DNA of 64,000 bases from Clostridiales bacterium (GCA_031263985.1 JAISER010000079.1:750-64749); one strand, 5' to 3'. Numbered from the stretch's first letter, positions 8,717-55,700 are shown. A program made the numbers and translations. Notes: generated by a model not told the origin, from the sequence alone.

Positions 8717-8753
8717 TAAAAAATCTTTCCATGCCCATCCGAGATAAGAAAAT

Positions 8754-8872
8754 ATGACTATCCAATTGTTTCATGAAGCCGCGCGAATGCGCTGCGCGGG
8801 GCACAGGGTCTAAGACCCCGGCAGGGTTTAGGGCGGAGTCCCAAGGTCTTTATGACTTGTCTGGATAGCTAT
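8754..8872 (+). repeat. MITE-like family B, full copy
   Basis: Aligns end to end with 2607..2725 and 47864..47981. Lies 38 nt downstream of a plus-strand stop codon. Confidence 0.8.
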
Positions 8873-8996
8873 TTAAGAAAATGGGCAAGAAAACGGAATA
8901 GGCTCTGTCAGAAAATAAAGTGTGCGGCCATAGCGCAAAAAGGGACTCGGGATAAAAACCGCGCCCCTTTTTTGATTGGAAATAGTTTTCAATTTT

Positions 8997-23688: not shown

Positions 23689-24864
23689 ATGCGTCGTGGC
23701 GAAACGGAAACAATTGGCGTGGAATATTATCTTTCTAAAATCTCTCAAGGAATTATAGCGTCGCTTGTAGCGTTGGCGGCGATTTTAGCGTTTAACAAAA
23801 ATGAGCTTTGGGCGCAGCTCTGCCTGTATGAAACCATGCCCGCGTATCAAATGGATGACGGCGTGAAAGCGTTTCTAAAGTTCAGCCAATATGACTTCGG
23901 CTTGGGTGATAAAAACGCATCCGCGATATTTTACGATTCACAACCGAACGCCGCGATGGCGGTCGCCATGTACGAGGATGACGAGTCCATAGCGCGGGAA
24001 TACGATGAGGTTCTAGGCGTTGACGACATAGTTTTTCAGCATGAAACGCCTGGAGCGGATACATACGACAATTTTGGGAAAGAAAACTTCACCATAGATG
24101 ACGTAGGAGAACTTAGAGATTTAGCCGCGCTCAAAAGTAAATTTTATATAGTGGATAACAGGACGGGCTTGTCGGAAGATTTATTCAATGTAGATAAATT
24201 TTTACAAGCTGACCTGGTTATAAACGAGAAGGCGAAAGGGCCGAAAATACTCGTTTTTCATACGCATGGAAACGAAAAATACGCTGACAGCGCCGGACAG
24301 GGGGACGGCGTAATCGGTTTTGGAGAGGCTCTTTGCGGCATATTAAACGAAAAATACGGCATAGAGACGCTTCATGATACGTCGAGCTTCGATGTAATAA
24401 ACGGTCAGTCGCATATCCTAGGGGCTTACGAACGCATGGAGCCTGTGATCAAAAAAATATTGGCCGATAATCCGTCCGTACAAGTCGCTATAGACGTGCA
24501 CCGCGACGGGGTTGACGAATCGGTCAGACTTGTTTCTGACGTTGACGGAAAGCCGACAGCGCAGCTTATGTTTTTCAATGGCTTAAGCAAACAATATAAA
24601 GAAGGCGAACTGCAAGACATAAAGAGTCTGCCGAACAAACACCGCGAGACGAACCTGGCGTTCAGTTTTCGTATGCAAATGGCCGCCAACGCCCTTTATC
24701 CGGGCATTACGCGTAAAGTATACCTAAACGCTTTCCGCTACAGCCTGCATATGCTGCCGAAATCATTGCTGGTCGAAGTCGGCGCGCAGACAAACGTCGA
24801 AGAGGAAGCTCTTAACGCCGCTGAGCCGCTCGCGGATATTTTAGCCAGCGTTATACTTAAGTAA
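23689..24864 (+). CDS. spoIIP: Stage II sporulation protein P
   Basis: N-terminal TM segment. SpoIIP-type blocks ILVFHTHGNEKY, AIDVHRDG, MFFNG. Confidence 0.8.
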   Translation: MRRGETETIGVEYYLSKISQGIIASLVALAAILAFNKNELWAQLCLYETMPAYQMDDGVKAFLKFSQYDFGLGDKNASAIFYDSQPNAAMAVAMYEDDESIAREYDEVLGVDDIVFQHETPGADTYDNFGKENFTIDDVGELRDLAALKSKFYIVDNRTGLSEDLFNVDKFLQADLVINEKAKGPKILVFHTHGNEKYADSAGQGDGVIGFGEALCGILNEKYGIETLHDTSSFDVINGQSHILGAYERMEPVIKKILADNPSVQVAIDVHRDGVDESVRLVSDVDGKPTAQLMFFNGLSKQYKEGELQDIKSLPNKHRETNLAFSFRMQMAANALYPGITRKVYLNAFRYSLHMLPKSLLVEVGAQTNVEEEALNAAEPLADILASVILK

Positions 24865-25169
24865 AGACCTTACAACTTGGTTAGCGTCTAAGCGTCAATC
24901 TTTCCGCCGCTCTTCGGCGTCCCAAAATACTGGCGCGTCGGTTTTCGCTTCTGAGCGCGGCGAAAGACTCGCTCAATAATCCACCCCGAACCCAGACGCT
25001 GAACAGGCTCTCAAATTTGTTTTCGCCGCCATATTCGCGGCGCTTCAATCCGATAAAATTATTATGGGCGACTTATGGAGTCGGTCATGAGAAAGTCGAA
25101 AGCGAGAACTCACGATAAACAGGAGGTCTCTATTAATATTGTTAATATATAAGAGAATCGCCATAAACT

Positions 25170-25580
25170 CTACTTCGCCCGTTCCAGCAAGGACACAATA
25201 TCTTTAAGCTTTTTATCTTTGCGCTTCTTGGCGGCGGTTATGGCAATATCTAAGGCGGTTTCGCCAAACATATTTAATCGCGCTGCGTCCGCTCCATGCT
25301 GAAGCAACGTTTCCGTCACTTTTTTGTGTCTGTAAAAAACCGCGTCATGTAATGGGGCATAACCGTCCGCGTCGGCGATATTAATGTCAGCTCCGTTCAG
25401 TGCCAAAACCTCGATATAATGGGCATCCCCCGCGCGGGCGGCGATATGCGATAAAGAACCATACGCCCCCAGACGGTCGATGTTCTCTAAAGCGCAAGCG
25501 TCGTCGAAATACCGCGCATAAGCGGTGAACACATCCTCTATTCTGACTTCATGGATCTGACTGTCCATTTTCTCAACCAT
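25170..25580 (-). CDS. Ankyrin-repeat protein
   Basis: 136 aa with about three ANK repeats (SLSHIAARAGDAHYIEVLALNGADIN, GYAPLHDAVFYRHKKVTETLLQHGAD, GETALDIA). Confidence 0.75.
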   Translation of the reverse strand: MVEKMDSQIHEVRIEDVFTAYARYFDDACALENIDRLGAYGSLSHIAARAGDAHYIEVLALNGADINIADADGYAPLHDAVFYRHKKVTETLLQHGADAARLNMFGETALDIAITAAKKRKDKKLKDIVSLLERAK

Positions 25581-25774
25581 GTTCCTTTATCAGTCTCCAA
25601 CCCGCTCCTAAAGCCTTCGTTTCAATTCGCCAATTCGTTTGTTTACAGATGCGATAACAGCTTTGTCGTTATCCTATATATCTAAGAGCCGGTTTAATAT
25701 CCTTTCAAGAGAATGGCGATTAGAGCCGAAGTAAGGGTTTAGCGGGAATTACGAATCCCGCGTTCATAGTTTTT

Positions 25775-26115
25775 TCAAAATCGGCGGGCTTCATCCATCC
25801 GTCCGAAGGTTCGTTCCACGCACCGGCGTTTTGGCGGTTCCATCGAGCCGGCGACAATATAGCGTTTGATTTCGGATACTTTTTTTGCCCGCGTCATAGC
25901 TTTTTCTGCGGCGGCGTCAGAGTTCCGAACGCTTTGCGCGTCCATAATTTCGAATGTAGTTTTATCTTCGCTAGGTTCTTTGTTTCGCGGCATTGTCACC
26001 AATCTTTTTTAATGCCTCGTAAAGCGGCGCCACTCCGTTTTCGCGTTCTTTCGCCAGACGTCATAATAATAGCGAACCATATCGCGCTTTGGAAAATCAG
26101 AGGGCGCCGCCGCCA
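25775..26115 (-). pseudogene. IS5-family transposase remnant (frameshifted, internally deleted)
   Basis: The minus strand reads PSDFPKRDMVRYYYDVWRKN...EIMDAQSVRNSD...KKVSEIKRYI...VERTFGRMDEARRF. It contains a stop codon and lacks the central DDE part. Confidence 0.6.
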
Positions 26116-26403
26116 CTGACAACCGCTTTTTATTAGGTAAATGGGTTCGACGGATTAATGAGTGAGTTTTTCGCCGCGTTAGAATTTTGATGACGAACGG
26201 CTACGAAAACCGACGCTTAGCTGCCAACCCAGACGATAAACAGACTCTTATATCGCTAGGATAATCTATACGTTTTATCTCCATCTTGGAGGATTATAGC
26301 GCTTCTGAAAGATTCTGAACAGGCTTTTAAAATATATTCGGCCGAAAGCCGTAAAGTTCCGTTATTGGCGGAAATTTCGCGCGGCGCGTTTTCAGGGGAC
26401 ATT

Positions 26404-27505
26404 TTAGCGCGAATAATAGTTCATCGGATTTTGACGCGAACCGTTCATCAGCGCCTCATAATGCGTGTGCGGACCGGTCGAATAACCTACGCTGCCAACG
26501 ATCGTATATTGTGGTCAACATTTACCGCGCCGGACTTTATTATGCTTAAGTAAAGACCTTGGGGACTCCGTCCCCAAACCCCCGCAAAAGGGACTTCGTC
26601 CCTTTTGAAACCCCCGCGGCGCTTCGCGCTGGCCAGGGAAGCTATCGGACTACTCCAAGATGGGGGATTCTTAGAGCCTGTTCAGTATCTAGCGCGAACT
26701 GTTCATCAGCGCCTCATAATGCGTGTGCGGACCGGTCGAATAACCTGCGCTGCCAACGATCGTATATTGTGGTCAACATTCACCGCGCCGGATTTTATTA
26801 TACCTAAGTAAAGACCTTGGGGACTCCGTTCCCAAATCCCGCTTTGAAACCCTGCGGCGCTTCGCGCTGGCCAGGGAAGTTATCGGACTATTCCGAGATA
26901 GGGGGACTCTTAGAGCCTGTTCAGTATCTAGCGCGAATAATAGTTCATCAGGTTTTGATGCGACCCGTTCATCCGCACCTCATAATGCGTGTGCGGACCG
27001 GTCGAACCCTGTGCTGCCAACGTTAGCTATCGTTTCGCCCTGACGCGCGCTCTGACCGACTTTAGAGATTAGTTTGGGGCAATGCGCGTACATTGTGGTC
27101 AATATCTGTAAAGACCTTGGGGACTTCGTCCCCACCCCCCCCCGCAAAAGGGACTTCGTCCCTTTTGAAACCCTACGGCGCTTCGCGCTGGCCAGGGAAA
27201 TTATCGGACTACTCCGAGAGATGGGGGATTATTAGAGTCTGTTCAGTATCTAGCGCGAACTGTTAATCGGCGCATCATAATGAGTGTACGGATCGGTTGA
27301 ATATCCTGCGCTTTCAACGAGCGTACATTGTGGTCAACATTTACCGCGCCGGACTTTATTATGCTTAAGTAAAGACCTTGGGGACTCCGTCCCAACCCCC
27401 CGTAAAAGGGACTTCGTCCCTTTTGAAACCCTACGACGCTTCGCGCTGGCCAGGGAAGCTATCGGACTACTCCGAGATGGGGGATTCTTAGAGCTCGTTC
27501 AGTAT
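26404..27505 (-). repeat. Array of four units: a copy of the M23 peptidase gene 3' end plus a 135-bp chimeric MITE-like spacer
   Basis: Cassette stop codons sit at 26404, 26689, 26928 and 27250, giving periods of 285, 239, 322 and 256 bp. Each cassette aligns to 27506..27745 of the expressed gene. Confidence 0.85.
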
Positions 27506-28672
27506 CTAGCGCGAATAATAGTTCATCGGGTTTTGATGCGAACCGTTCATTCGCACCTCATAATGCGTGTGCGGACCGGTCGAATACCCTGTGCTGCCAA
27601 CGTTAGCTATCGTTTCGCCCTGACGCACGCTCTGACCGACTTTAGCGATCAGTTTGGAGCAATGCGCGTACATTGTGGTCAATCCGCCGCCGTGGTCCAC
27701 AATTACGGTGTAGCCGTAGCCGTTTACCGCGCCGGACTTTATGACTGTTCCGTCCGCGGCGGACACTATGGCGCTGCCTGTTGGCGCGGGTATATCTATG
27801 CCGGTGTGAAACTCGTTTTTGCCACTTATTGGGTTAACGCGGGGACCGAATCCGGAGCTTACGCGGCTGCGGCTGGGCACGGGCCAAACGAGAGCGCCGC
27901 CGCTGTACGGAACGGGCGTATACGCGTTTTGCGCCGTGTTGTAATTCGACTGCTGTTTTTGTATAAGAGCGGCTATTTCATTATTTGACTTTTCAAGCGC
28001 GTTTATCATCTGCTGATACTTCACTTCGTCGGATTCCAGCGCGGCGACCAAGTTCTTCTTTTCGACCAGCTTTTCCTCCAGCGCGCGCGTTTTAGCCGTT
28101 TGTTCGTTAGAGAGCAGTTGTATCTCGTCTTTTTGAACCTTTACTTCCTCTAATTTTTCCTCGACAGCGACTTGCGCTTTGTACAACGTTTCGACAACAT
28201 TATCGTCATATTCGACGATTCGGTTTATGTATTCAACGCGATTCATTAAATCGGAAAGATCCTTAGATTTAAGCAAAACGTCAAGATACGCGCTTTTGCC
28301 GTTTATATACATAAATCTAAGACGTTTGTCAAACGCCTCTTGGCTTCTCGCCCTCTCACGTTCCGCTTTTTGCAGCTCATATTCCGTTTCGGCCAATAGT
28401 TCCTTCGTCTTTTCAAGCTCACGGTTCGTTACTTCTAAGTTATACATGGCGTCGTCCAACGCTTCGTCAATAGCGTCCAATTCCTCCGAAGCGGTCGCTT
28501 TTTTAAGCTCCACATCCTTCAAACTCTTTTGCGCGTCGTTTGTCTGGGCCTTTACGCCCTCTTGCTGTTTCTTAAGCTCTGACAGCGTAAGGCTGGCGTT
28601 AGCTAAAGCTCGCGCGTCAAATAACGCGAAGCAAACCGCGATTGACAAGAAAAACACCGCTAATTTTCGCAA
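27506..28672 (-). CDS. Coiled-coil M23 (LytM) peptidoglycan metalloendopeptidase, FtsEX-associated
   Basis: Signal/TM segment, about 230 aa of coiled coil, then a LytM domain with HTGIDI (HxxxD) and GPHTHYE (HxH). Lies directly downstream of ftsE-ftsX. Confidence 0.85.
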   Translation of the reverse strand: MRKLAVFFLSIAVCFALFDARALANASLTLSELKKQQEGVKAQTNDAQKSLKDVELKKATASEELDAIDEALDDAMYNLEVTNRELEKTKELLAETEYELQKAERERARSQEAFDKRLRFMYINGKSAYLDVLLKSKDLSDLMNRVEYINRIVEYDDNVVETLYKAQVAVEEKLEEVKVQKDEIQLLSNEQTAKTRALEEKLVEKKNLVAALESDEVKYQQMINALEKSNNEIAALIQKQQSNYNTAQNAYTPVPYSGGALVWPVPSRSRVSSGFGPRVNPISGKNEFHTGIDIPAPTGSAIVSAADGTVIKSGAVNGYGYTVIVDHGGGLTTMYAHCSKLIAKVGQSVRQGETIANVGSTGYSTGPHTHYEVRMNGSHQNPMNYYSR

Positions 28673-28784: not shown

Positions 28785-29693
28785 TTAAGCCTTTAAATGT
28801 CTGCGCAAACTGCTCACGCTGCCCGCGGACCCGATAAATATGCCGAGCGCAAGCGCCGCGGGCGCCAAAATGACGAAAATTTCCGGGGCGGATTTAAATT
28901 CCACAAGACGCTCAAGCGCTTTAAACCGTTCAAATATCCTCGCCACGACGCCGTTATACCCGAACCAACACAGCGCTACAGGTATCGCGGCGCCTATGAA
29001 GCCGATAAGCATGCCTTCTATGATAAAAGGCCAGCGTATAAACCAATCCGTAGCGCCGATATATTTCATAATCTGTATTTCCATGCGCCGTGTGTTGACC
29101 GTTATTTTTATCGTATTCATGATAATGACGACGGACACGATTATCAGAGCCAATATAATCAACACGCTTACTATTCTTATGGCGTTATTTATAGAAATTA
29201 TCAGGTTTATAATTTGTTCGTCATACTTAATTTCCTCAATGCCATCTTTTTTAAGACCTTCCAGTTCCGTTACAACGGAATCGCGGTTCTTTATGTCGTC
29301 CAGCGCTACGTTGAACGACCGCGGCAGCGGGTTTTTGTCTTCCGGTATGCCGTCAAGAAGCCCTTGGTCGTCGCCAAGCTCCTCGCGGAATTTTTTAAGC
29401 GCGTCTTCGGATGAGACGTATATAACGGTTTTTACATGCGGTATGGAGCTGATTTCGCTCGACAGCGGGGTAAGATTTTCAGGAGGCACGTCATCGCGCA
29501 AATATACCGACAGATTAAGCGAGCTTTCCATCTGCTCCAAAAAGTAGGCGACGTTTTCCGCCAGGCAGTACGAAAACGAAACGACCAGCATACATGACAT
29601 AACGGTAACTATCGAAGCGAAGGACATTAAGCGGTTCCGCAGAAGCCCCGTCGCCGCTTCGCGCATGAAATAGCTTAGGCTTCTAAATTTCAT
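28785..29693 (-). CDS. ftsX: Cell division permease-like protein FtsX
   Basis: 302 aa with 4 TM segments and a large extracellular loop. Overlaps ftsE by 11 nt. Confidence 0.88.
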
Positions 29694-30369
29694 CGCTGTA
29701 TCCGCCCTTTTCGATATCTCTGGCTATCATGCCGTTTTGTATTGTTATGACGCGTTTTTTCATTCGGTCCACTATTTCCTTAGCGTGCGTCGCGACGACC
29801 GTAGTCGTGCCAAGCTCGTTTATGTCTTCCAGAAGCGTCATAATTTCCCACGCCGTTTCCGGGTCAAGATTACCGGTCGGCTCGTCCGCCAAAAGAAGCG
29901 CCGGTTTGTTAACTATCGCGCGGGCGAGGCTGACGCTCTGCTGCTCGCCGCCTGAAAGCTGGTTCGGGTACGCTTTGGCCTTTTTTTGCAAGCCGACCAT
30001 AGCGAGAACCGCCGGAACGTTGCGGCGTATATCCCTATGAGCGGCCTGCACTGTCTGCATGGCGAACGCCACGTTTTCATAGACCGTCTTGCTGGGCAGA
30101 AGGCGGAAATCTTGAAAGACGACGCCCATGCGACGGCGAAAATATGGCACGCTTTTCCTCGTAAGCGATTTAAGAACGACGTCATTTATTATAATGTCTC
30201 CGTGCGACGGCTCAATCTCTTTAAGCATAAGGCGTATTAACGTTGATTTGCCTGAGCCGCTTGAGCCGACGATAAACGCGAAGTCTCCTTTTTCAATATC
30301 AAGGGAGACGCGCGTAACGCCTTTAGCGTTGTTCCCATAAATTTTCGTCACGTCGTTCATATGTATCAA
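29683..30369 (-). CDS. ftsE: Cell division ATP-binding protein FtsE
   Basis: ABC ATPase motifs [28 protein letters not shown]. Confidence 0.9.
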
Positions 30370-31524: not shown

Positions 31525-32478
31525 TTATTCAAGCACGGACAAAGGGTTGACCGGCACGCTGTTTTTGGCGACTTTAAAGCCGAGGTGGTTGCCCAACAAA
31601 ACGCTGTAGATGCTTGGGTTGTTAACGCCGCCTATAATTTGCCCTTTTTTAACCAAGTCGCCTTCTTTTACAAGGAGGCCGTCTTGCAGTTGACTGTACG
31701 TCGTCGTCCAACCGTTGCCGTGATCTATTACGATTAAGTTGCCGTTTTCTTTAGTGTTAGCGGTTTTAACCACGACGCCTTCGGCCGACGCCACGACTTG
31801 TGAGCCGATGTCGGCGCCTATGCAGAGGATGTCGTTCGTTCTGTACTGGTCGAGCGTTTTGTCATAGATCGCGTGGCTGTCGCTGTAATCCATGACTATG
31901 TCTCCAAGAACCGGCCAGGACATCTTGGAATTTTCGCTGAACGAATCAAATTGCGGCTCCAATACGTAATCATCCGCCGCGTTGGACGCTTCGGCCGTTT
32001 CCTCCGCGTTTAAAGCTTCAGATTCGCTGACCGTCGTTTTTTTCTTGTCGCTGTCGTTCGGCGTTTCGCTGTTTTCCGGAGCTTCTTTGTTGGCGCTTTG
32101 CTTTTGCTCCTGGTTTGGCTCCTTTGGAGCCGCGTTTTCATCCTCAGGCGTTTTGGACGCCCGCTCGTCTTCCGCGCTCGCCGACGGTTTCACCGGCTCG
32201 CCCACTTTGCCGTCCTCGGGTTTGGCGTTTTTGTCCTTTACTCTCGCTTCCAGCGCGTCGTCCATAGCCTGGCCCAGTATGGTCTGCGGATCCGCTGTAG
32301 TCGTCGCCAGCCCGGAAAGATCGATTTCATCGCTTGTATTTCCCCCCGGTTTGTTGAGAGCGGCGAAATTGTTAAACGATACGACGACGGCAAAAACCAT
32401 AACGGCGGCTAAGCATGAGTAAAGGGCTACATAAAACCCTTTTCGCTTAAACATGCTTTCTTTTGGAACTTTTTTCAT
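31525..32478 (-). CDS. Membrane-anchored M23/LytM-domain protein (possibly SpoIIQ-like)
   Basis: N-terminal TM segment, an acidic/Lys-rich linker, and a C-terminal LytM fold (LIVIDHGNGWTTTYSQL). Confidence 0.65.
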   Translation of the reverse strand: MKKVPKESMFKRKGFYVALYSCLAAVMVFAVVVSFNNFAALNKPGGNTSDEIDLSGLATTTADPQTILGQAMDDALEARVKDKNAKPEDGKVGEPVKPSASAEDERASKTPEDENAAPKEPNQEQKQSANKEAPENSETPNDSDKKKTTVSESEALNAEETAEASNAADDYVLEPQFDSFSENSKMSWPVLGDIVMDYSDSHAIYDKTLDQYRTNDILCIGADIGSQVVASAEGVVVKTANTKENGNLIVIDHGNGWTTTYSQLQDGLLVKEGDLVKKGQIIGGVNNPSIYSVLLGNHLGFKVAKNSVPVNPLSVLE

Positions 32479-34403: not shown

Positions 34404-35030
34404 GCGGCGATATAGCGCCAGAGTGGCTTAAACAACCTGCAACCCGGACGCGGGCGACCATCCTGGAGAAAAAGCGTATATGGAATCGCTGAAAAAAACA
34501 TTGCGGTAAACTTTCCTGAAAAAAGATTCGCCCCAAATTTGTTTTAGATCTTTTCAAAAACGGCGCGAAGCGGAGTTTTTGTATGAAAGCTTTTTGAAGG
34601 AGGTTTGGAGGAAACTTTTTATCGAAAAAGTTTCCTCCAAAAAATCATTATCTTTAAGAAAAAACAGTCCCCAAATAACTAAAAGCTGATTTCGCGTTGA
34701 ATGGTCTGCCGCCGGTAAAAGTTCACTGTTCACGCTTCGCTGAAAAGGCGCGCCGCTCTGAGAGAACTCTATACGGAAGCGGCGATATAGCGCCGGAAGG
34801 GCTTAAACAATCTGCAACCAGGATGCGGGCGATTGTCATAAGCGTATGCGGATCACCGAAAGAGATATTGCTGTGAACTTTCCCGAAAAAAGATTCGCCC
34901 CAAATTTGTCTTAGATCTTTTCAAAAACGGCGCGAAGCGGAGTTTTTGGATGAAAGCTTTTTGAAGGAGGTTTGGAGGAAACTTTTTCTCGAAAAAGTTT
35001 CCTCCAAAAAATCTTTATCTTTTATATAAA
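34404..35030 (+). repeat. Direct repeat of about 260 bp, two copies with a 375-bp period, each holding a 17-bp perfect stem-loop
   Basis: Copies start at 34404 and 34779. Stems TTTGGAGGAAACTTTTT / AAAAAGTTTCCTCCAAA lie at 34604..34641 and 34971..35008. Confidence 0.75.
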
Positions 35031-35109
35031 ACTGGATATCCCAAATCCAAACCGGGCGAGGCTATACCGCCGCGCCGCTCATAGAAGGGGTGGAGTTAAC
35101 GATTAGGTT

Positions 35110-39108: not shown

Positions 39109-40125
39109 TTACCAATCAGTCCGCCGTTCTTGATATGAAAACGTCATGCTGTCAACGACCTTGCGTCGTTCCGCTTCCCCATCCATTGATGTCGACATTA
39201 TCCGCACAAGCGTTACATGCTCATTGTCAGCGCGAATATAGTAATCATGATAAATTATCGCGTCATAACCATATACGATTTGCAATTCCCTGTGTTCAGC
39301 GAGCGTCTCGCGACCGGACAGCGTAAGTTTTTCGACGGCGATCAGGTCTTTCGCCATGTTTTCATCATAAACGTTGTACCGGTTGTTATATGGGTACATG
39401 GCGTCGGGCAATCCGCGTTCCGAAGAAAACCCATATAATCTAATCGCGCTAATATGAGGTTCGCTATGATAACTTGGTCCATCTAACTGCCAATTTTTTG
39501 CGTAGTATGTCCAGCCTGATGGGACTTTAATCGTTACGGCGTAATCCTTGTCCGCCGTTCCGCCGCCTGATATCCAGTACAATTCGTCGCCGCAATAATC
39601 TATCGAATTTATCGCGAAACTAACGGCGGTCGATTCCCTCTGAATGAACAGTTTTCTGGCATTGTCGTCCCAACTGACGTGATAGCCGAATTCTTTCATC
39701 GCTTCCGCGCCGATGAAAGTTTCGCCGCCTGTGTTATAGCTGACAATCTCTTTGCCGTTGAGCGTTGTTTTTATATCGGAGCTGTAATACCTCCCGGCTA
39801 CGCTTCCGGGAGAACCACGCTTCACGCTCAAAAGAGCGCCGTCCTCCGCTTCAAGCGTAATCATTGACGTTAGCTTGTCAACGATTTCAAGGCGTCTCTC
39901 TTTTGCAAGCCACGTTACTGTAAATCCATAACGCGCCATTGACTCCGCGTCAATGAGCGTAACGCCGCCGATATTTATGGAGTTTACGGGCGTATCCCAT
40001 AGATAGGTCACAATATCGGTATAGTAGTAGCTTCCTGCGGCGGCGCCCGGCGCAGCGGGGACGGGCGCTAAAATATTCAGCGTCAACGCGATAGTCATTC
40101 CTATAAACATCAATGTTTTTTTCAA
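39109..40125 (-). CDS. Secreted protein with two copper-amine-oxidase-N-terminal-like (stalk) repeats and an unknown C-terminal domain
   Basis: TTG start lies 5 nt after AGGAGGA. Signal peptide MKKTLMFIGMTIALTLNILAP. Contains repeats of the type YYTDIVTYLWDTPVNSINIGGVTLIDAESMARYGF. Confidence 0.65.
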   Translation of the reverse strand: MKKTLMFIGMTIALTLNILAPVPAAPGAAAGSYYYTDIVTYLWDTPVNSINIGGVTLIDAESMARYGFTVTWLAKERRLEIVDKLTSMITLEAEDGALLSVKRGSPGSVAGRYYSSDIKTTLNGKEIVSYNTGGETFIGAEAMKEFGYHVSWDDNARKLFIQRESTAVSFAINSIDYCGDELYWISGGGTADKDYAVTIKVPSGWTYYAKNWQLDGPSYHSEPHISAIRLYGFSSERGLPDAMYPYNNRYNVYDENMAKDLIAVEKLTLSGRETLAEHRELQIVYGYDAIIYHDYYIRADNEHVTLVRIMSTSMDGEAERRKVVDSMTFSYQERRTDW

Positions 40126-40405
40126 ATTTATCCTCCTATACAAGCGGTTTATTGTATTAACGCAACGCGAGCTCTCCTGTAACGCCAACCGCGCTTAATG
40201 AACTTTCCCTATTTCGCTTATTAATTCTCTAAATTAATTATTCAGCGTCAACGCGATAGTCATTCCTATGAACATCAATGTTTTTTTCAAATTTATCCTC
40301 CTATATTACAAGCGGTTTATTGTGTTAACGCAACGCGAGCTCTCCTGTAACGCCAATCGCGCTTAATGAACTTTCCCTATTTAGCTCATTAAATTCTCTA
40401 AATTC
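40076..40405 (-). repeat. Tandem duplication (2 x 165 bp) of the 5' end plus RBS plus upstream region of 39109..40125
   Basis: 40076..40240 and 40241..40405 are about 95% identical. The distal copy keeps the RBS, the TTG start and an 18-codon stub. Confidence 0.8.
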
Positions 40406-40470
40406 ATTATATAGTATCGCTATTTCGACTAAAAACGGTTTTTTGCTCCCATTTGAACTGTCGCAAACGA

Positions 40471-47840: not shown

Positions 47841-47863
47841 TTTAAAGCGGATCTTTTTCTAAT

Positions 47864-47981
47864 ATGACTATCCAACCGTTTCATGAAGCCGCGCGAATGC
47901 GCGGCGCGGGGTCCGGGGTCGAAGACCCCGGCGGGGTTTGAGGCGGAGCCCCAAGGTCTTTATGATTTGTCTGGATGTCAT
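47864..47981 (+). repeat. MITE-like family B, full copy
   Basis: Lies 23 nt downstream of the DUF58 stop. Nearly identical to 2607..2725. Confidence 0.8.
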
Positions 47982-48029
47982 TTTTTCTAAAGTCTTCCAG
48001 CGCTCATCGCGTATATTTTGTGAATGCGC

Positions 48030-51746: not shown

Positions 51747-52580
51747 ATGAGTGATGATAAAAATATCGGGAAAGAACAATAGAATATCATGAAGAAGGAC
51801 ACAATATCAGGGAACCGGCAAAGATATTCGGCATATCGCCAAACACATTGAACGCCTGGTTAAAACAATATCGCGATAACGGAGGGCTTGAGCGAAAATA
51901 CCGAAGCTATAAAACAGGCTATAAGCGGAGAAGAACCGCTAGCGCATCTAAGAGCCTGTTTAAGATCTCCATTTCGCGTCTTTTCGGATTATCTTCCGCC
52001 ACACTTTGTCAGCGCTCTTTGCGTATATTCTTCGAATACGCGGCGTTCGCGTTTCCGTGTTTGGCGAAAACTCATCACAAAAAAATCCGCTAAAAGCGAG
52101 ATTTAAAACAGATTCTTAGAACAAATCCGTGATGTTCGACCGAAAAGCATTGTTTATATTGATGAAACCGGCATCGATACTTTTTTGCGCAGAGAACACG
52201 CTTATTCCAAGCGCGGAGAAGGAGTTATCGGGCGAGTTTTCGGTAGGAAATATCGGAGTTTGGGTATTGTCGCCGTTCCAATTTAACGGAACAATGGATG
52301 TCCGGTTATGTGAGTTTTGGTTTGAAAACTGTCTCTTGCGCGAATGTCCTTCTAATTCCGTCATTATAATGGACAACGCCGCTTTTCATCGAAAGAAACG
52401 GCTTATTTCGATTGCCGAAAGCAATAAACATAAAATAGCGCTCCTGCCGCCGTATTCCCTGGAATATAACCCAATTGAGAAATTTTGGGCATGGCTTCAA
52501 CGCAAGCTCAGGCAAGAGTTATCTTATTTTGATAGTTTTGATGATTGTTTGAGGTACTGTTTCAATAGCATTCAACCATA
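51747..52580 (+). pseudogene. IS630-family transposase, inactivated
   Basis: An A5 run replaces the A6 run of copy 1, giving an early stop. The gene is also interrupted by the MITE, and the terminal stop codon is lost. Confidence 0.75.
51949..52118. repeat. MITE-like family A, complete 170-bp copy nested in IS630 copy 2
   Basis: TAAGAGCCTGTTTAAGATCTCC ... GAGATTTAAAACAGATTCTTA. TA is present at both junctions. Confidence 0.8.
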
Positions 52581-52762: not shown

Positions 52763-55700
52763 TCATGCCAACGTGCGATTTAAAACAACTGACCAGTTGC
52801 TAAACACCCCATTTTTTCTTGTGCGAGCCCTAAATTGATAACTTCCTGTGTCGGGAATAATAAGTATGCCTTCCGAACCTTCAAATGTGGCTATCTTCCA
52901 ATCTGTCGCCGACGCTTTTTTATAGCTTACATCATAAAAAGCGTCGTCATACGGCGGGTTCCAAAGCGGTATGGCTATGCTCAATTGAAGAAAGGCAGAA
53001 GAAAGGCCTAAATGTACAGTAAACGACGTTGGCTTTTCAAGCGAAAACGTAAGCGCCCTCCCCATGGTAACCCTCGCTGAAGGACTGACGGCGCCCAAAG
53101 CGTACCCGCTGTTATTCCCCCACGCGTAAGCGTATATGTCCGAGAACAAATTGTCGCCCTCGTTTATAATCGCAAGGTTGTGATACTGCCCGGCCGAGAT
53201 CGTCCCTATATCGGATCCGTTCGATTGCGTTATTTTCTTCGGTTTATATGTAATAGTCGACGCCTTCGTGTTATACCCCAACTGTAGGCTGTCGTTCTTT
53301 CCCCATGTCCACATGTACCCCGCCGAATCAAGCGACAGGTTGTGGTCAACGCTCGCGGAAATAGATTTTATAACGACGCCCGACGAAGCCACTAAGGTGG
53401 TGTCCACCGTTTGCGTCCCCGTGTAAGCGGTCAAGTTCCCCTTTCCCAACTGCCCTGACGCGTTTTGACCAAATGATTTCAGAACGGCGCCGCCTGACTG
53501 TAAAGCCAGCCCATGCCCGGCGCCCGCGGCTATCTCGACGATATCGCTAAGCCCGGCTATCGCGGTCGCTTCATAAATATTGGTCTCGGAAGACGAGCTT
53601 ATCTTGTTGAAGTCGTTGCGTCCCCAACCGTAAACCTGCCCGTCCGCGCTAAGGGCCAAGCTGAAATCTCCCCCGGCGGCTATATCGACAAAGCTGACGC
53701 CGCTTGGTTTGATTACTTTCATGGCCTGCGATCTGTATGTCGTGTAATCGTCGCCCAGTTGCCCGTAATCGTTGCGCCCCCAAGCGTAAACGTCGCCGTT
53801 TGAGTAAAGCGCCAGACTGTAGTCGCCGAACGCGGATATTTTTAATATGTTGTTTAACGGCGTGAGTATGATTGAAAAAAGCTCGTGCGGCTTCTGCACC
53901 GTTACGGGCGCCGTTTGGTCTGTCGTCGTCATATCTCCGAGCTGCCCGTAGTTGTTGCGTCCCCAAGCCGCCACCGTTCCGTTCGATTGCAGAGCGAGGG
54001 AATGTTCCGCGCCTCCGGCTATCGCGATTACATCCTTCAGCCCTGTGACCGTTTGCGGCTGAGCCGTGTCGGACGAAGTCGTTCCGTTACCTGACGCGCC
54101 GTTACCAAGCTGGCCGTATGTATTGGAGCCCCATGTGGAAACCGTGCCGTTCGGGTTAATCGCCAGCGAAAAGTCTTTTCCGGCGGCGACGCGGGGATGC
54201 GTCGTGCGGGCGACGTCGAGCGCGCGCTGCGCGTTAAGCCTGCCGCCTGTTAAGACTTTCTTTGATATGTACGGCTCTATTCCATTTAATGACTGCATAA
54301 CGTCCACACTGTCAAGTATCGCCTTTTTAATTTCGGCGGTCGTCAGTTCCGGGTTGTACGCCTTGATCAAAGCGGCGACGCCTGTGACCATAGGCGCTGC
54401 ATAAGAAGCGCCTAAATGAATTCCATAGCGATTGTTCGGCCGAGGTCCATATATAAATTTACCTGGCGCCGCTAAATCGACGCTGACAGAACCGTAATTT
54501 GACCCACCGTTATAAAACGTTTCGCTTTTGTTGGTCGGGTTAATTGCGGTGGCGGCGACGGATATCAAGTTGTCGCAGTCAAACGACGATGGGTAACTCT
54601 TAATATTATCGTAAGCGTCAATGGACCCTAAGGTATTTCCAGCCGCAACCACCATAAGGCCTTTGTAACTGTTAATCGCGTCTTCTACGGGAATATATTG
54701 CGCCTTATCCTCATCAGCGTTAGTTGTTTGCCATCCTCCGCTAAAGTTAATAATTTCTATATTGTTATTATTAGCGAACGCTATCGCTGACACTACGGCG
54801 GAAGCTTCGAAGCCTGACCCGCTATCTTTTCTGACTTTCAAGGGGACAATTTCAACGTTAGGAGCTACGCCCGTAAACGAAATATTATTGTTCCATTTAG
54901 CTCCAAGAATGCCCGCCACAGCGGTTCCGTGATAATATTCGGCGATTGTTGAAGGCAAAGGGGACGGATCGTTGTCATCATCCGCGAAATCCTTCCTTAG
55001 AGAACTATCCTGCGTTATGTTAGCCAGCTCAGGATGCGACATGTCAAAGCCGTTATCAATAACCGCGACTTTGACTCTTGATTCCGGATCTCCGGCGGCA
55101 TAGCTCCACACGTATGGCATTTTTATAGCGTCAAGCGCGAGACTTGCCGTATAACCCGGGTTGTCGCTTAGAAAGCCAGCGTCAATAGAGGGATAATAAT
55201 CTGACGGAATGTACTCGCTGACTCCATATTCCTCCATCATATAATAGTCAGGCGTGGCGTATGCCACAAACGGATTATCATTTAAAGCGTCTATTGCGTC
55301 TATGACATTTTGTTTGCCCGGTTCTTTCAGCGTTAGCGCGATTATTTTATCCGAATCGACAATGTCAAATTCGGACGTATCGTTATATTCAATAATTGAG
55401 TTGTCTTCGCCAAACTCCGTTAAACTTTTAATATTGGAAAGCTGAACGCCTAAAAATTCGTTCGTAACGTCATCCTCATCATCGTTTGATATACTAACGC
55501 TTTTCGCGGTTGCTCCGCCGGAAGATAACTTGGCTTCATTCGTTACAATAGGCGTATCTGACAGGAAACTAGCTTTAGCTTCGTCAAACGCTTCTTTAGC
55601 GGCGACATCCGTATTAACGTTCAATTCTTCCACAATGACTGACGGTCGCGCTTTAAGACCTACTATAACGGTGTCTGGCGCAAAATCATCTTCAATGTCT

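Follow-up and report, generated by a model that had tools for sequence, protein, structure and literature searches.

An array of decaying peptidase gene tails in a Clostridiales bacterium, probably left by tandem duplication across two convergent gene ends

Introduction

Tandem segmental duplication is a familiar event in bacterial chromosomes: segments are repeated through illegitimate or short-repeat joins, unequal exchange follows, and the copies then pass through a deletion-biased pseudogene decay. Partial gene copies are also the stock of the silent-cassette gene-conversion systems, such as pilE/pilS in Neisseria, vlsE in Borrelia, and the MgPa repeats of Mycoplasma genitalium. Here we describe a locus that can be held against both, in a stretch of 64,000 nucleotides from a Clostridiales bacterium (GCA_031263985.1 JAISER010000079.1:750-64749; the whole of this stretch is called the window). 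In it an intact M23 peptidase gene, associated with ftsE and ftsX, is followed by four units, each composed of a spacer (E) and a stretch copied from the 3′ end of the gene (a cassette, c1 to c4), and beyond them lies the convergent gene spoIIP. The array is real and was accurately described when it was noticed from the sequence, and the kind of event behind it is ordinary and already understood: we regard the array as probably a neutral remnant of a tandem duplication that spanned the ends of two convergent genes, later amplified and now decaying.

Like other tandem segmental duplications, the locus has head-to-tail units, one new junction, colinear flanks, intact genes, and decay through substitutions and deletions between short repeats. 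It differs in that the repeated segment spans two convergent gene ends, so that the copies look like 3′ cassettes, and in that the array is old (7-14% divergence) rather than transient, with its distal end overwritten by mobile DNA. With the silent-cassette systems it shares several promoterless partial copies close to one expressed gene; here, however, the copies cover a conserved catalytic core instead of a variable surface region, they carry inactivating changes, and the arrangement is not conserved in relatives (0 of 31 loci). The miniature inverted-repeat elements of the genome itself offer a further comparison, since E starts like one of them (family A) and has a hairpin body like another (family B) ending GGTCTTTAY, whereas it has no second terminal repeat and no target-site duplication and is confined to the array. 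Integrative elements, finally, leave partial gene copies, for example fragments of tRNA genes (PMC9897764), and tandem accretion of ICESt1-type elements is credited to Pavlovic 2004 in PMC5812530. The likeness lies in repeated 3′-end fragments of one gene, in direct orientation downstream of the intact copy, but at this locus no integrase was found among the neighbours scanned with Pfam, there is no cargo, the homology extends over 238 nt, and the spacer is host sequence ending in a fragment of spoIIP.

Results

The two genes that bound the locus are both intact (positions are counted from the first nucleotide of the window):

27506-28672, minus strand: intact FtsEX-associated M23/PcsB-type peptidase gene (open reading frame, ORF; Pfam PF01551 and PF24568)
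23689-24864, plus strand: intact spoIIP, convergent with the peptidase gene (ORF; full Pfam match to PF07454; C terminus VILK followed by the stop)

The peptidase gene comes directly after ftsE (29683-30369) and ftsX (28785-29693), and by Pfam its product of 388 amino acids combines a PcsB-type coiled coil with a Peptidase_M23 domain. Read in the sense of the gene, along the minus strand, its stop codon (27508-27506) is followed by E0, c4, E4, c3, E3, c2, E2, c1, and then unique sequence:

27369-27505, minus strand: E0, spacer copy 1, with a family-A-like terminal repeat (~20 nt), a diverged family-B-like body with GNA-loop hairpins, and the end GGTCTTTAC (alignments, fold)
27250-27368, minus strand: cassette c4, a 10-nt spoIIP fragment and the peptidase tail with five deletions
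27108-27249, minus strand: E4, spacer copy 2 (alignment)
26928-27107, minus strand: cassette c3, an unbroken copy from TTGACC through the stop
26808-26927, minus strand: E3, spacer copy 3, one hairpin lost through a 21-nt deletion
26689-26807, minus strand: cassette c2, built like c4 and mismatched to the gene at 9 of 110 nt
26550-26688, minus strand: E2, spacer copy 4 (alignment)
26404-26549, minus strand: cassette c1, the most distal copy, with four deletions and a full-length end closed by TAA, mismatched to the gene at 10 of 137 nt

The sequence-only reading had reported four units of 239-322 bp downstream of the peptidase stop, and its coordinates and layout hold: the units measure 256, 322, 239, and 285 bp, and every one consists of a spacer E of 120-142 bp and a partial copy drawn from the last 238 nt of the gene (27743-27506). 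Its further statement that each gene tail is followed by an element of ~135 bp is right for the array in general but fails for the last copy, c1, after which a local alignment search found no remnant of E. A terminator-like hairpin stands at the 3′ end of E0. Among themselves the E copies are 88-93% identical, and c1, c2, and c4 are 86-92% identical, which suggests that the copies may be of similar age. Local BLAST gave E-values of 1e-10 to 1e-77 for the similarities within the array, where the longest exact repeat is 67 nt and all others are at most 46 nt; for the marker 20-mers, 0 chance matches are expected.

That the cassettes are silent, diverged copies of the 3′ end of their own gene is borne out, since the only matches they have within the window are to this gene and among themselves, and BLAST found none there to the second M23 gene (31525-32478). 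The three cassette translations given earlier are correct when the aligned sequences are translated by hand, the 2-nt deletion reported in c3 appears in the alignment, and the cassettes have no start codon in the frame of the tail (read by hand for c1).

One part of the earlier description has to be replaced. The opening 10 nt of c1, c2, and c4 (TTAAGCATAA, gene sense) are not peptidase sequence; they derive from the 3′ end of spoIIP, being the antisense of the last 10 nt of its ORF, 1.5 kb away. The site at spoIIP surfaced when the window was scanned for GGTCTT(W)WA:

24851-24871, plus strand: last 10 nt of the spoIIP ORF and, sharing the stop codon with them, the 11 nt (GTAAAGACCTT) that remain of the last spacer copy (21-mer matches)

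The 21-mer at this site, TTATRCTTAAGTAAAGACCTT, takes in the last 10 nt of the ORF (whose VILK codons run to 24861), then TAA as the stop, and another 7 nt, so E starts at the spoIIP stop codon. Within the window the 21-mer occurs only here and at the junctions of c1, c2, and c4 (26540, 26798, and 27359), with 0 chance matches expected. The junction itself, with a slash at the join, reads ...GGTCTTTAC-TTAAG(C/T)ATAA/TAAAGTCC in these three cassettes and has a shortened form (AGATA) at the 5′ junction of c3. The presence of the 21-mer at the spoIIP stop and at three junctions is most simply read as making E the former spacer between peptidase and spoIIP, and the ancestral spacer between two convergent genes is what E most likely represents. 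The units lie head to tail in one orientation, at the new junction the segment's distal end meets its proximal start, and the unit ends are colinear with the single-copy flanks, that is, with the peptidase tail from 27743 on one side and with the last 10 nt and stop of spoIIP on the other. Three units (those of c1, c2, and c4) have one new junction in common, as a single founding duplication predicts.

When four filler-free deletions are taken out of the gene tail, the result is c1 with its 10 mismatches:

21 nt in c1, flanked by the direct repeat GTAA
17 nt in c1, flanked by the direct repeat GACCAC
56 nt in c1, flanked by the direct repeat ACG
6 nt in c1, with no clear flanking repeat

If 27 nt between TTCGC repeats are removed as well, the result is c2 (9 mismatches in 110 nt) or c4 (15 in 110); this further deletion is in frame only because the TTCGC repeats happen to lie 27 nt apart. 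Cassettes 1, 2, and 4 had been described as joining non-contiguous segments of the gene; the joins are clean deletions and hold no filler. They are of the kind typical of slipped-strand deletion in unselected DNA. Cassette c3 retains 94.9% identity to the gene over 178 nt, and its 2-nt deletion shifts the frame; all four cassettes carry deletions. As a gauge of past coding constraint, about half of the differences fall at third codon positions, with no clear excess in these small counts.

The changes reach residues that the enzyme family keeps. In all 19 homologues inspected the C-terminal region follows the invariant pattern GSTG...PH.H(F/Y)E(V/F)R..G.H.(N/D)P, and the live peptidase, whose motif is GSTGYSTGPHTHYEVR..NP, fits that pattern and keeps every residue conserved among these homologues. 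At the place of the invariant EVR, c1 and c2 read EAL (HTHYEAL); c4 reads PYTHYDAP, the first catalytic His of the HxH motif having become Tyr.

Copies of the peptidase tail are peculiar to this locus among those compared: at 31 homologous peptidase loci, no copy of the tail lies downstream of the gene. The nearest peptidase is 42% identical among the GTDB species genomes and 49% identical in a set of 5.8 billion proteins, and at the locus of the latter homologue there is no array, the next gene beginning 16 nt beyond the stop codon. The species is represented by a single genome and a single read set, and the collections searched contain no sister genome, so the ancestral state is a reconstruction. 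Compared by BLAST with phage and plasmid records, the whole array had no match; Rfam returned no family for the region, either at its gathering threshold or with E-values allowed up to 1, and contig look-ups with the ORFs inside the array found nothing.

The spacer is composite, and its description as a chimera of a family-A-like terminal repeat and a family-B-like body was a fair one. Family A is an inverted-repeat element of ~170 nt whose terminal repeat is TAAGAGCCTGTTTAA; one full copy lies near 51960-52125, and further ends are at 8996, 10759, 15197, 19379, 13381, 16303, and 52042. Family B is ~130 nt long, with the terminal repeat ATGACTATCC and an 8-9-bp target duplication, and its copies lie at 2604-2733, 8751-8880, and 47861-47990 on the plus strand and at ~1170-1300 (near 1230) on the minus strand. 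The first ~20 nt of E (ATACTGAACAGGCTCTAAG) resemble the right terminal repeat of family A, and the remainder aligns with the body of family B, compensated hairpins included (GGGAC-GAA-GTCCC against GGGTC-GAA-GACCC). The terminal repeats of family B are missing from E, which ends at GGTCTTTAC, and the set of ends is incomplete for either family. E is found only at the four array sites within the window, and an exact scan of the JGI metagenome and IMG/VR collections with a 21-nt core of E gave no match. Because E has no terminal-repeat pair, no target-site duplication, and no dispersed copies, it does not look mobile. An integron attC reading of E was set aside, since by eye its ends, ACTGAAC and GGTCTTTAC, give no paired RYYYAAC/GTTRRRY sites.

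A looser pattern for the last hairpin of E recovered about ten metagenome contigs with a two-hairpin module ending GGTCTTTAT, always intergenic, and this part of E thus belongs to a widespread intergenic module. The module has a variable first hairpin, then GGGTTTGGGGAC-GGA-GTCCCCAAGGTCTTTAT, and its conservation ends exactly after GGTCTTTAT. It was seen in contigs L040, L041, L045, L047, L050, L051, L055, L056, and L059 and in the window at 26550-26600 and 62790-62870; on unrelated metagenome contigs its sites include one between pta and ackA, one beside lepA, and one after a flagellin gene. No Rfam family matches the module, which could be a mobile terminator-like element.

Where the last spacer copy would be expected, beyond c1, the window holds other DNA:

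24872-26403, no strand: mobile DNA block in place of the last spacer copy (inverted repeats, ankyrin Pfam matches, family-A-like remnants)

Within it, a 1.36-kb segment (24876-26232) lies between imperfect inverted repeats of ~100 nt (24876-24982 and 26152-26232) and contains an ankyrin-repeat gene (25170-25580, minus strand; Pfam) and frameshifted ORF fragments. Family-A-like remnants follow at 26237-26333, with an inverted family-A-like copy at 26310-26333. Of the last E copy only AAGGTCTTTAC is left, beside spoIIP. The ORF fragments at 25775-26200 look transposase-like by eye; an IS5-like identity was dropped, the fragments having no Pfam match.

The Pfam scan of the neighbours identified FtsE, FtsX, the peptidase, the ankyrin-repeat protein, SpoIIP, Coat_F, and the second M23 protein. 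This last protein (31525-32478, minus strand) has GNHLGFKV at the expected HxH position and may be a catalytically degenerate LytM-type domain; its gene sits amid sporulation genes (Coat_F, SpoIVB, SpoIIP).

Discussion

A relic of tandem duplication is, in our judgement, the probable origin of the array. Its anatomy and junction sequences, the deletions, the loss of conserved residues, and the lack of such an array in relatives are direct observations; we infer both the order of events and the mechanism of exchange as follows. Ancestrally, spoIIP on the plus strand and the peptidase gene on the minus strand would have converged on ~137 bp of E, a spacer that would itself have been debris of repeat elements with terminator-like hairpins. 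A segment of ~390 bp, reaching from position 27743 in the peptidase gene across its stop codon and E as far as 10 nt into the spoIIP ORF, would then have been duplicated by an illegitimate join (...GCATAA/TAAAGTCC...), for which the sequence allows no more than 1 nt of microhomology. As the segment held gene ends only, both genes would have stayed intact at no cost, and the duplication could persist. Unequal exchange between the copies would have produced four extra units, whose unselected tails decayed by 4-14% substitutions, by deletions between direct repeats of 3-6 nt, and, in c3, by the frameshift. Patches of gene conversion may have kept some stretches identical, such as the 67-nt block present in two units and possibly c3 with respect to the live gene. 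Mobile DNA would later have replaced the last E copy and moved spoIIP 1.5 kb away. In a phylogeny of the units the E copies are star-like and about equidistant, the cassettes are mosaic, and c3 is closest to the live gene; together with the shortened junction of c3 and the 67-nt block, these patterns point to exchange or conversion among the copies.

Several observations fit this account less well. The 5′ junction of c3 differs from the others and needs an extra step of deletion or conversion, and c2 has the 27-nt deletion in common with c4 but its substitutions in common with c1, which needs recurrent deletion or conversion. A 67-nt block that is identical in units otherwise 86-92% identical could reflect selection instead of conversion. 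The nearest known peptidase is so distant, at 49% identity, that the state before the duplication is reconstructed and never observed, and at 37 related loci spoIIP is never close to the peptidase gene.

An assembly artefact, in which strain variants or a collapsed or expanded repeat were strung into a false array, deserves consideration, since the window lies on a 74.8-kb contig from an NCBI metagenome-assembled genome labelled Clostridiales bacterium and since the Logan contigs of the sole public run with this organism break at the array, so that copy number and order come from the one assembly. One of two independently built Logan contigs from SRR14710921 (L001) equals window 30507-27597 at 99.97% and ends at the first 31-mer common to the gene and c3; another (L039) equals window 26472-23640 at 100% and begins right after the stretch shared by c1 and c2. 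A graph with k=31 yields such break points when the reads contain several copies: the contigs break exactly where two contexts share a 31-mer, which requires at least a c2-like and a c3-like copy. The units moreover differ by 7-14% and by distinct indels, and unique sequence covers every junction; with no exact repeat longer than 67 nt, reads of 150 nt can order the units. Strain variation would not yield shared deletion junctions or the spoIIP fragment, and an artefact is therefore very improbable.

Serial site-specific integration would have a small element with a replacement 3′ end inserting repeatedly, each insertion pushing the previous tail downstream. The different stop of c1 (TAA) and the unique sequence after it are what one would expect of an original, displaced gene end, and the integrative elements cited above (PMC9897764; for ICESt1-type accretion, Pavlovic 2004 as cited in PMC5812530) set a precedent for the partial copies. 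At this locus, however, no recombinase is found among the scanned neighbours, the ORF fragments in the mobile block included, as these match no Pfam family. What separates the repeats is not foreign DNA flanked by core-only repeats but 120-142 bp of host-type repeat debris and the 10-nt spoIIP fragment, and the homology with the gene is 238 nt, not a short core. Cassette c4, which adjoins the gene, should be the newest displaced tail and is instead the most decayed; the array has no counterpart in phage or plasmid collections, and the spoIIP-derived junction already argues against such a history. We give serial integration, which had been put forward as one possible origin, very little credence.

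A working reservoir, also suggested earlier, would have the cassettes serve as gene-conversion donors to the expressed gene, as in the pilS, vls, or MgPa systems, or the array act through antisense or small RNAs from promoter-like sites at the junctions. The partial copies are promoterless and all in one orientation, and with c3 95% identical to the gene, exchange between gene and cassette may occur. The cassettes alter invariant residues of the catalytic motif or the reading frame, however, so conversion would inactivate the enzyme; they hold no usable coding variants, and the arrangement does not recur at related loci. Taken with the absence of copies in all 31, these changes make a recombination reservoir unlikely. 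For the RNA version, a plus-strand TCAACA-17-TATTAT is kept in c1, c2, and c4 and falls within the 67-nt identical block, but the hexamers match at 9 of 12 positions, ~4.6 such sites are expected per 4 kb, and no Rfam family matches the region; they look like a by-product of the duplication junction. A functional reservoir of either sort is thus highly unlikely. The block occurs at 26508-26574 (c1/E2) and 27327-27393 (c4/E0) on the plus strand, and the promoter-like site in it points into E. It is likewise very improbable that the junction has been co-opted, so that transcription starting there would cross E and continue along the antisense strand of the following tail copy, giving RNAs with ~90% complementarity to the peptidase mRNA at its 3′ end, or that copies occasionally exchange with the live gene.

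A diversity-generating retroelement was rejected, the differences not being specific to adenines (of the 10 positions at which c1 departs from the gene, only 2 are A in the cassette, as read by hand), and Pfam found no reverse transcriptase among the neighbours scanned, a scan limited to neighbours and not extended to the whole window. Duplication mediated by a miniature inverted-repeat element, the remaining origin proposed earlier, is not supported, given the lack in E of a terminal-repeat pair from either family, of a target-site duplication, and of dispersed copies.

The neutral relic of a tandem duplication, our preferred reading, has company in the window, where two plain tandem duplications lie at other gene boundaries and 38 families of direct repeats occur; such relics are tolerated by this genome. 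At 62763-63375, the last ~75 nt of a gene of the isocitrate/isopropylmalate-dehydrogenase family (minus strand, ending at 63280) and 127 nt downstream of it are present in three copies, as head-to-tail units of 202 nt that are 91-95% identical and free of indels, with junction microhomology GAC(C/T)TCGC; each unit holds a hairpin module built like that of E. At 40074-40410, a tandem duplication of 168 nt takes in the first codons (the signal-peptide region) and the upstream region of a secreted-protein gene (39109-40188, minus strand). A direct repeat of 181 nt, 92% identical at a spacing of 367 nt (34485-34665 and 34852-35032), is intergenic and lies upstream of a putative dihydrouridine-synthase gene. 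Repeat pairs ~4.7 kb apart and 77-98% identical (54127-55390 with 58795-60082; 57288-57379 with 62032-62123) suggest a larger segmental duplication or paralogous gene blocks.

The array is of little biological importance in itself. Its value is that of a worked example of how a duplication across convergent gene ends mimics an array of silent cassettes, in which a fragment of the second gene at the junctions is the giveaway and may help in the triage of similar findings. For this uncultured, sporulating lineage of Clostridia, the many small repeats and the surviving duplications at gene boundaries fit a weak pressure to delete spare DNA.

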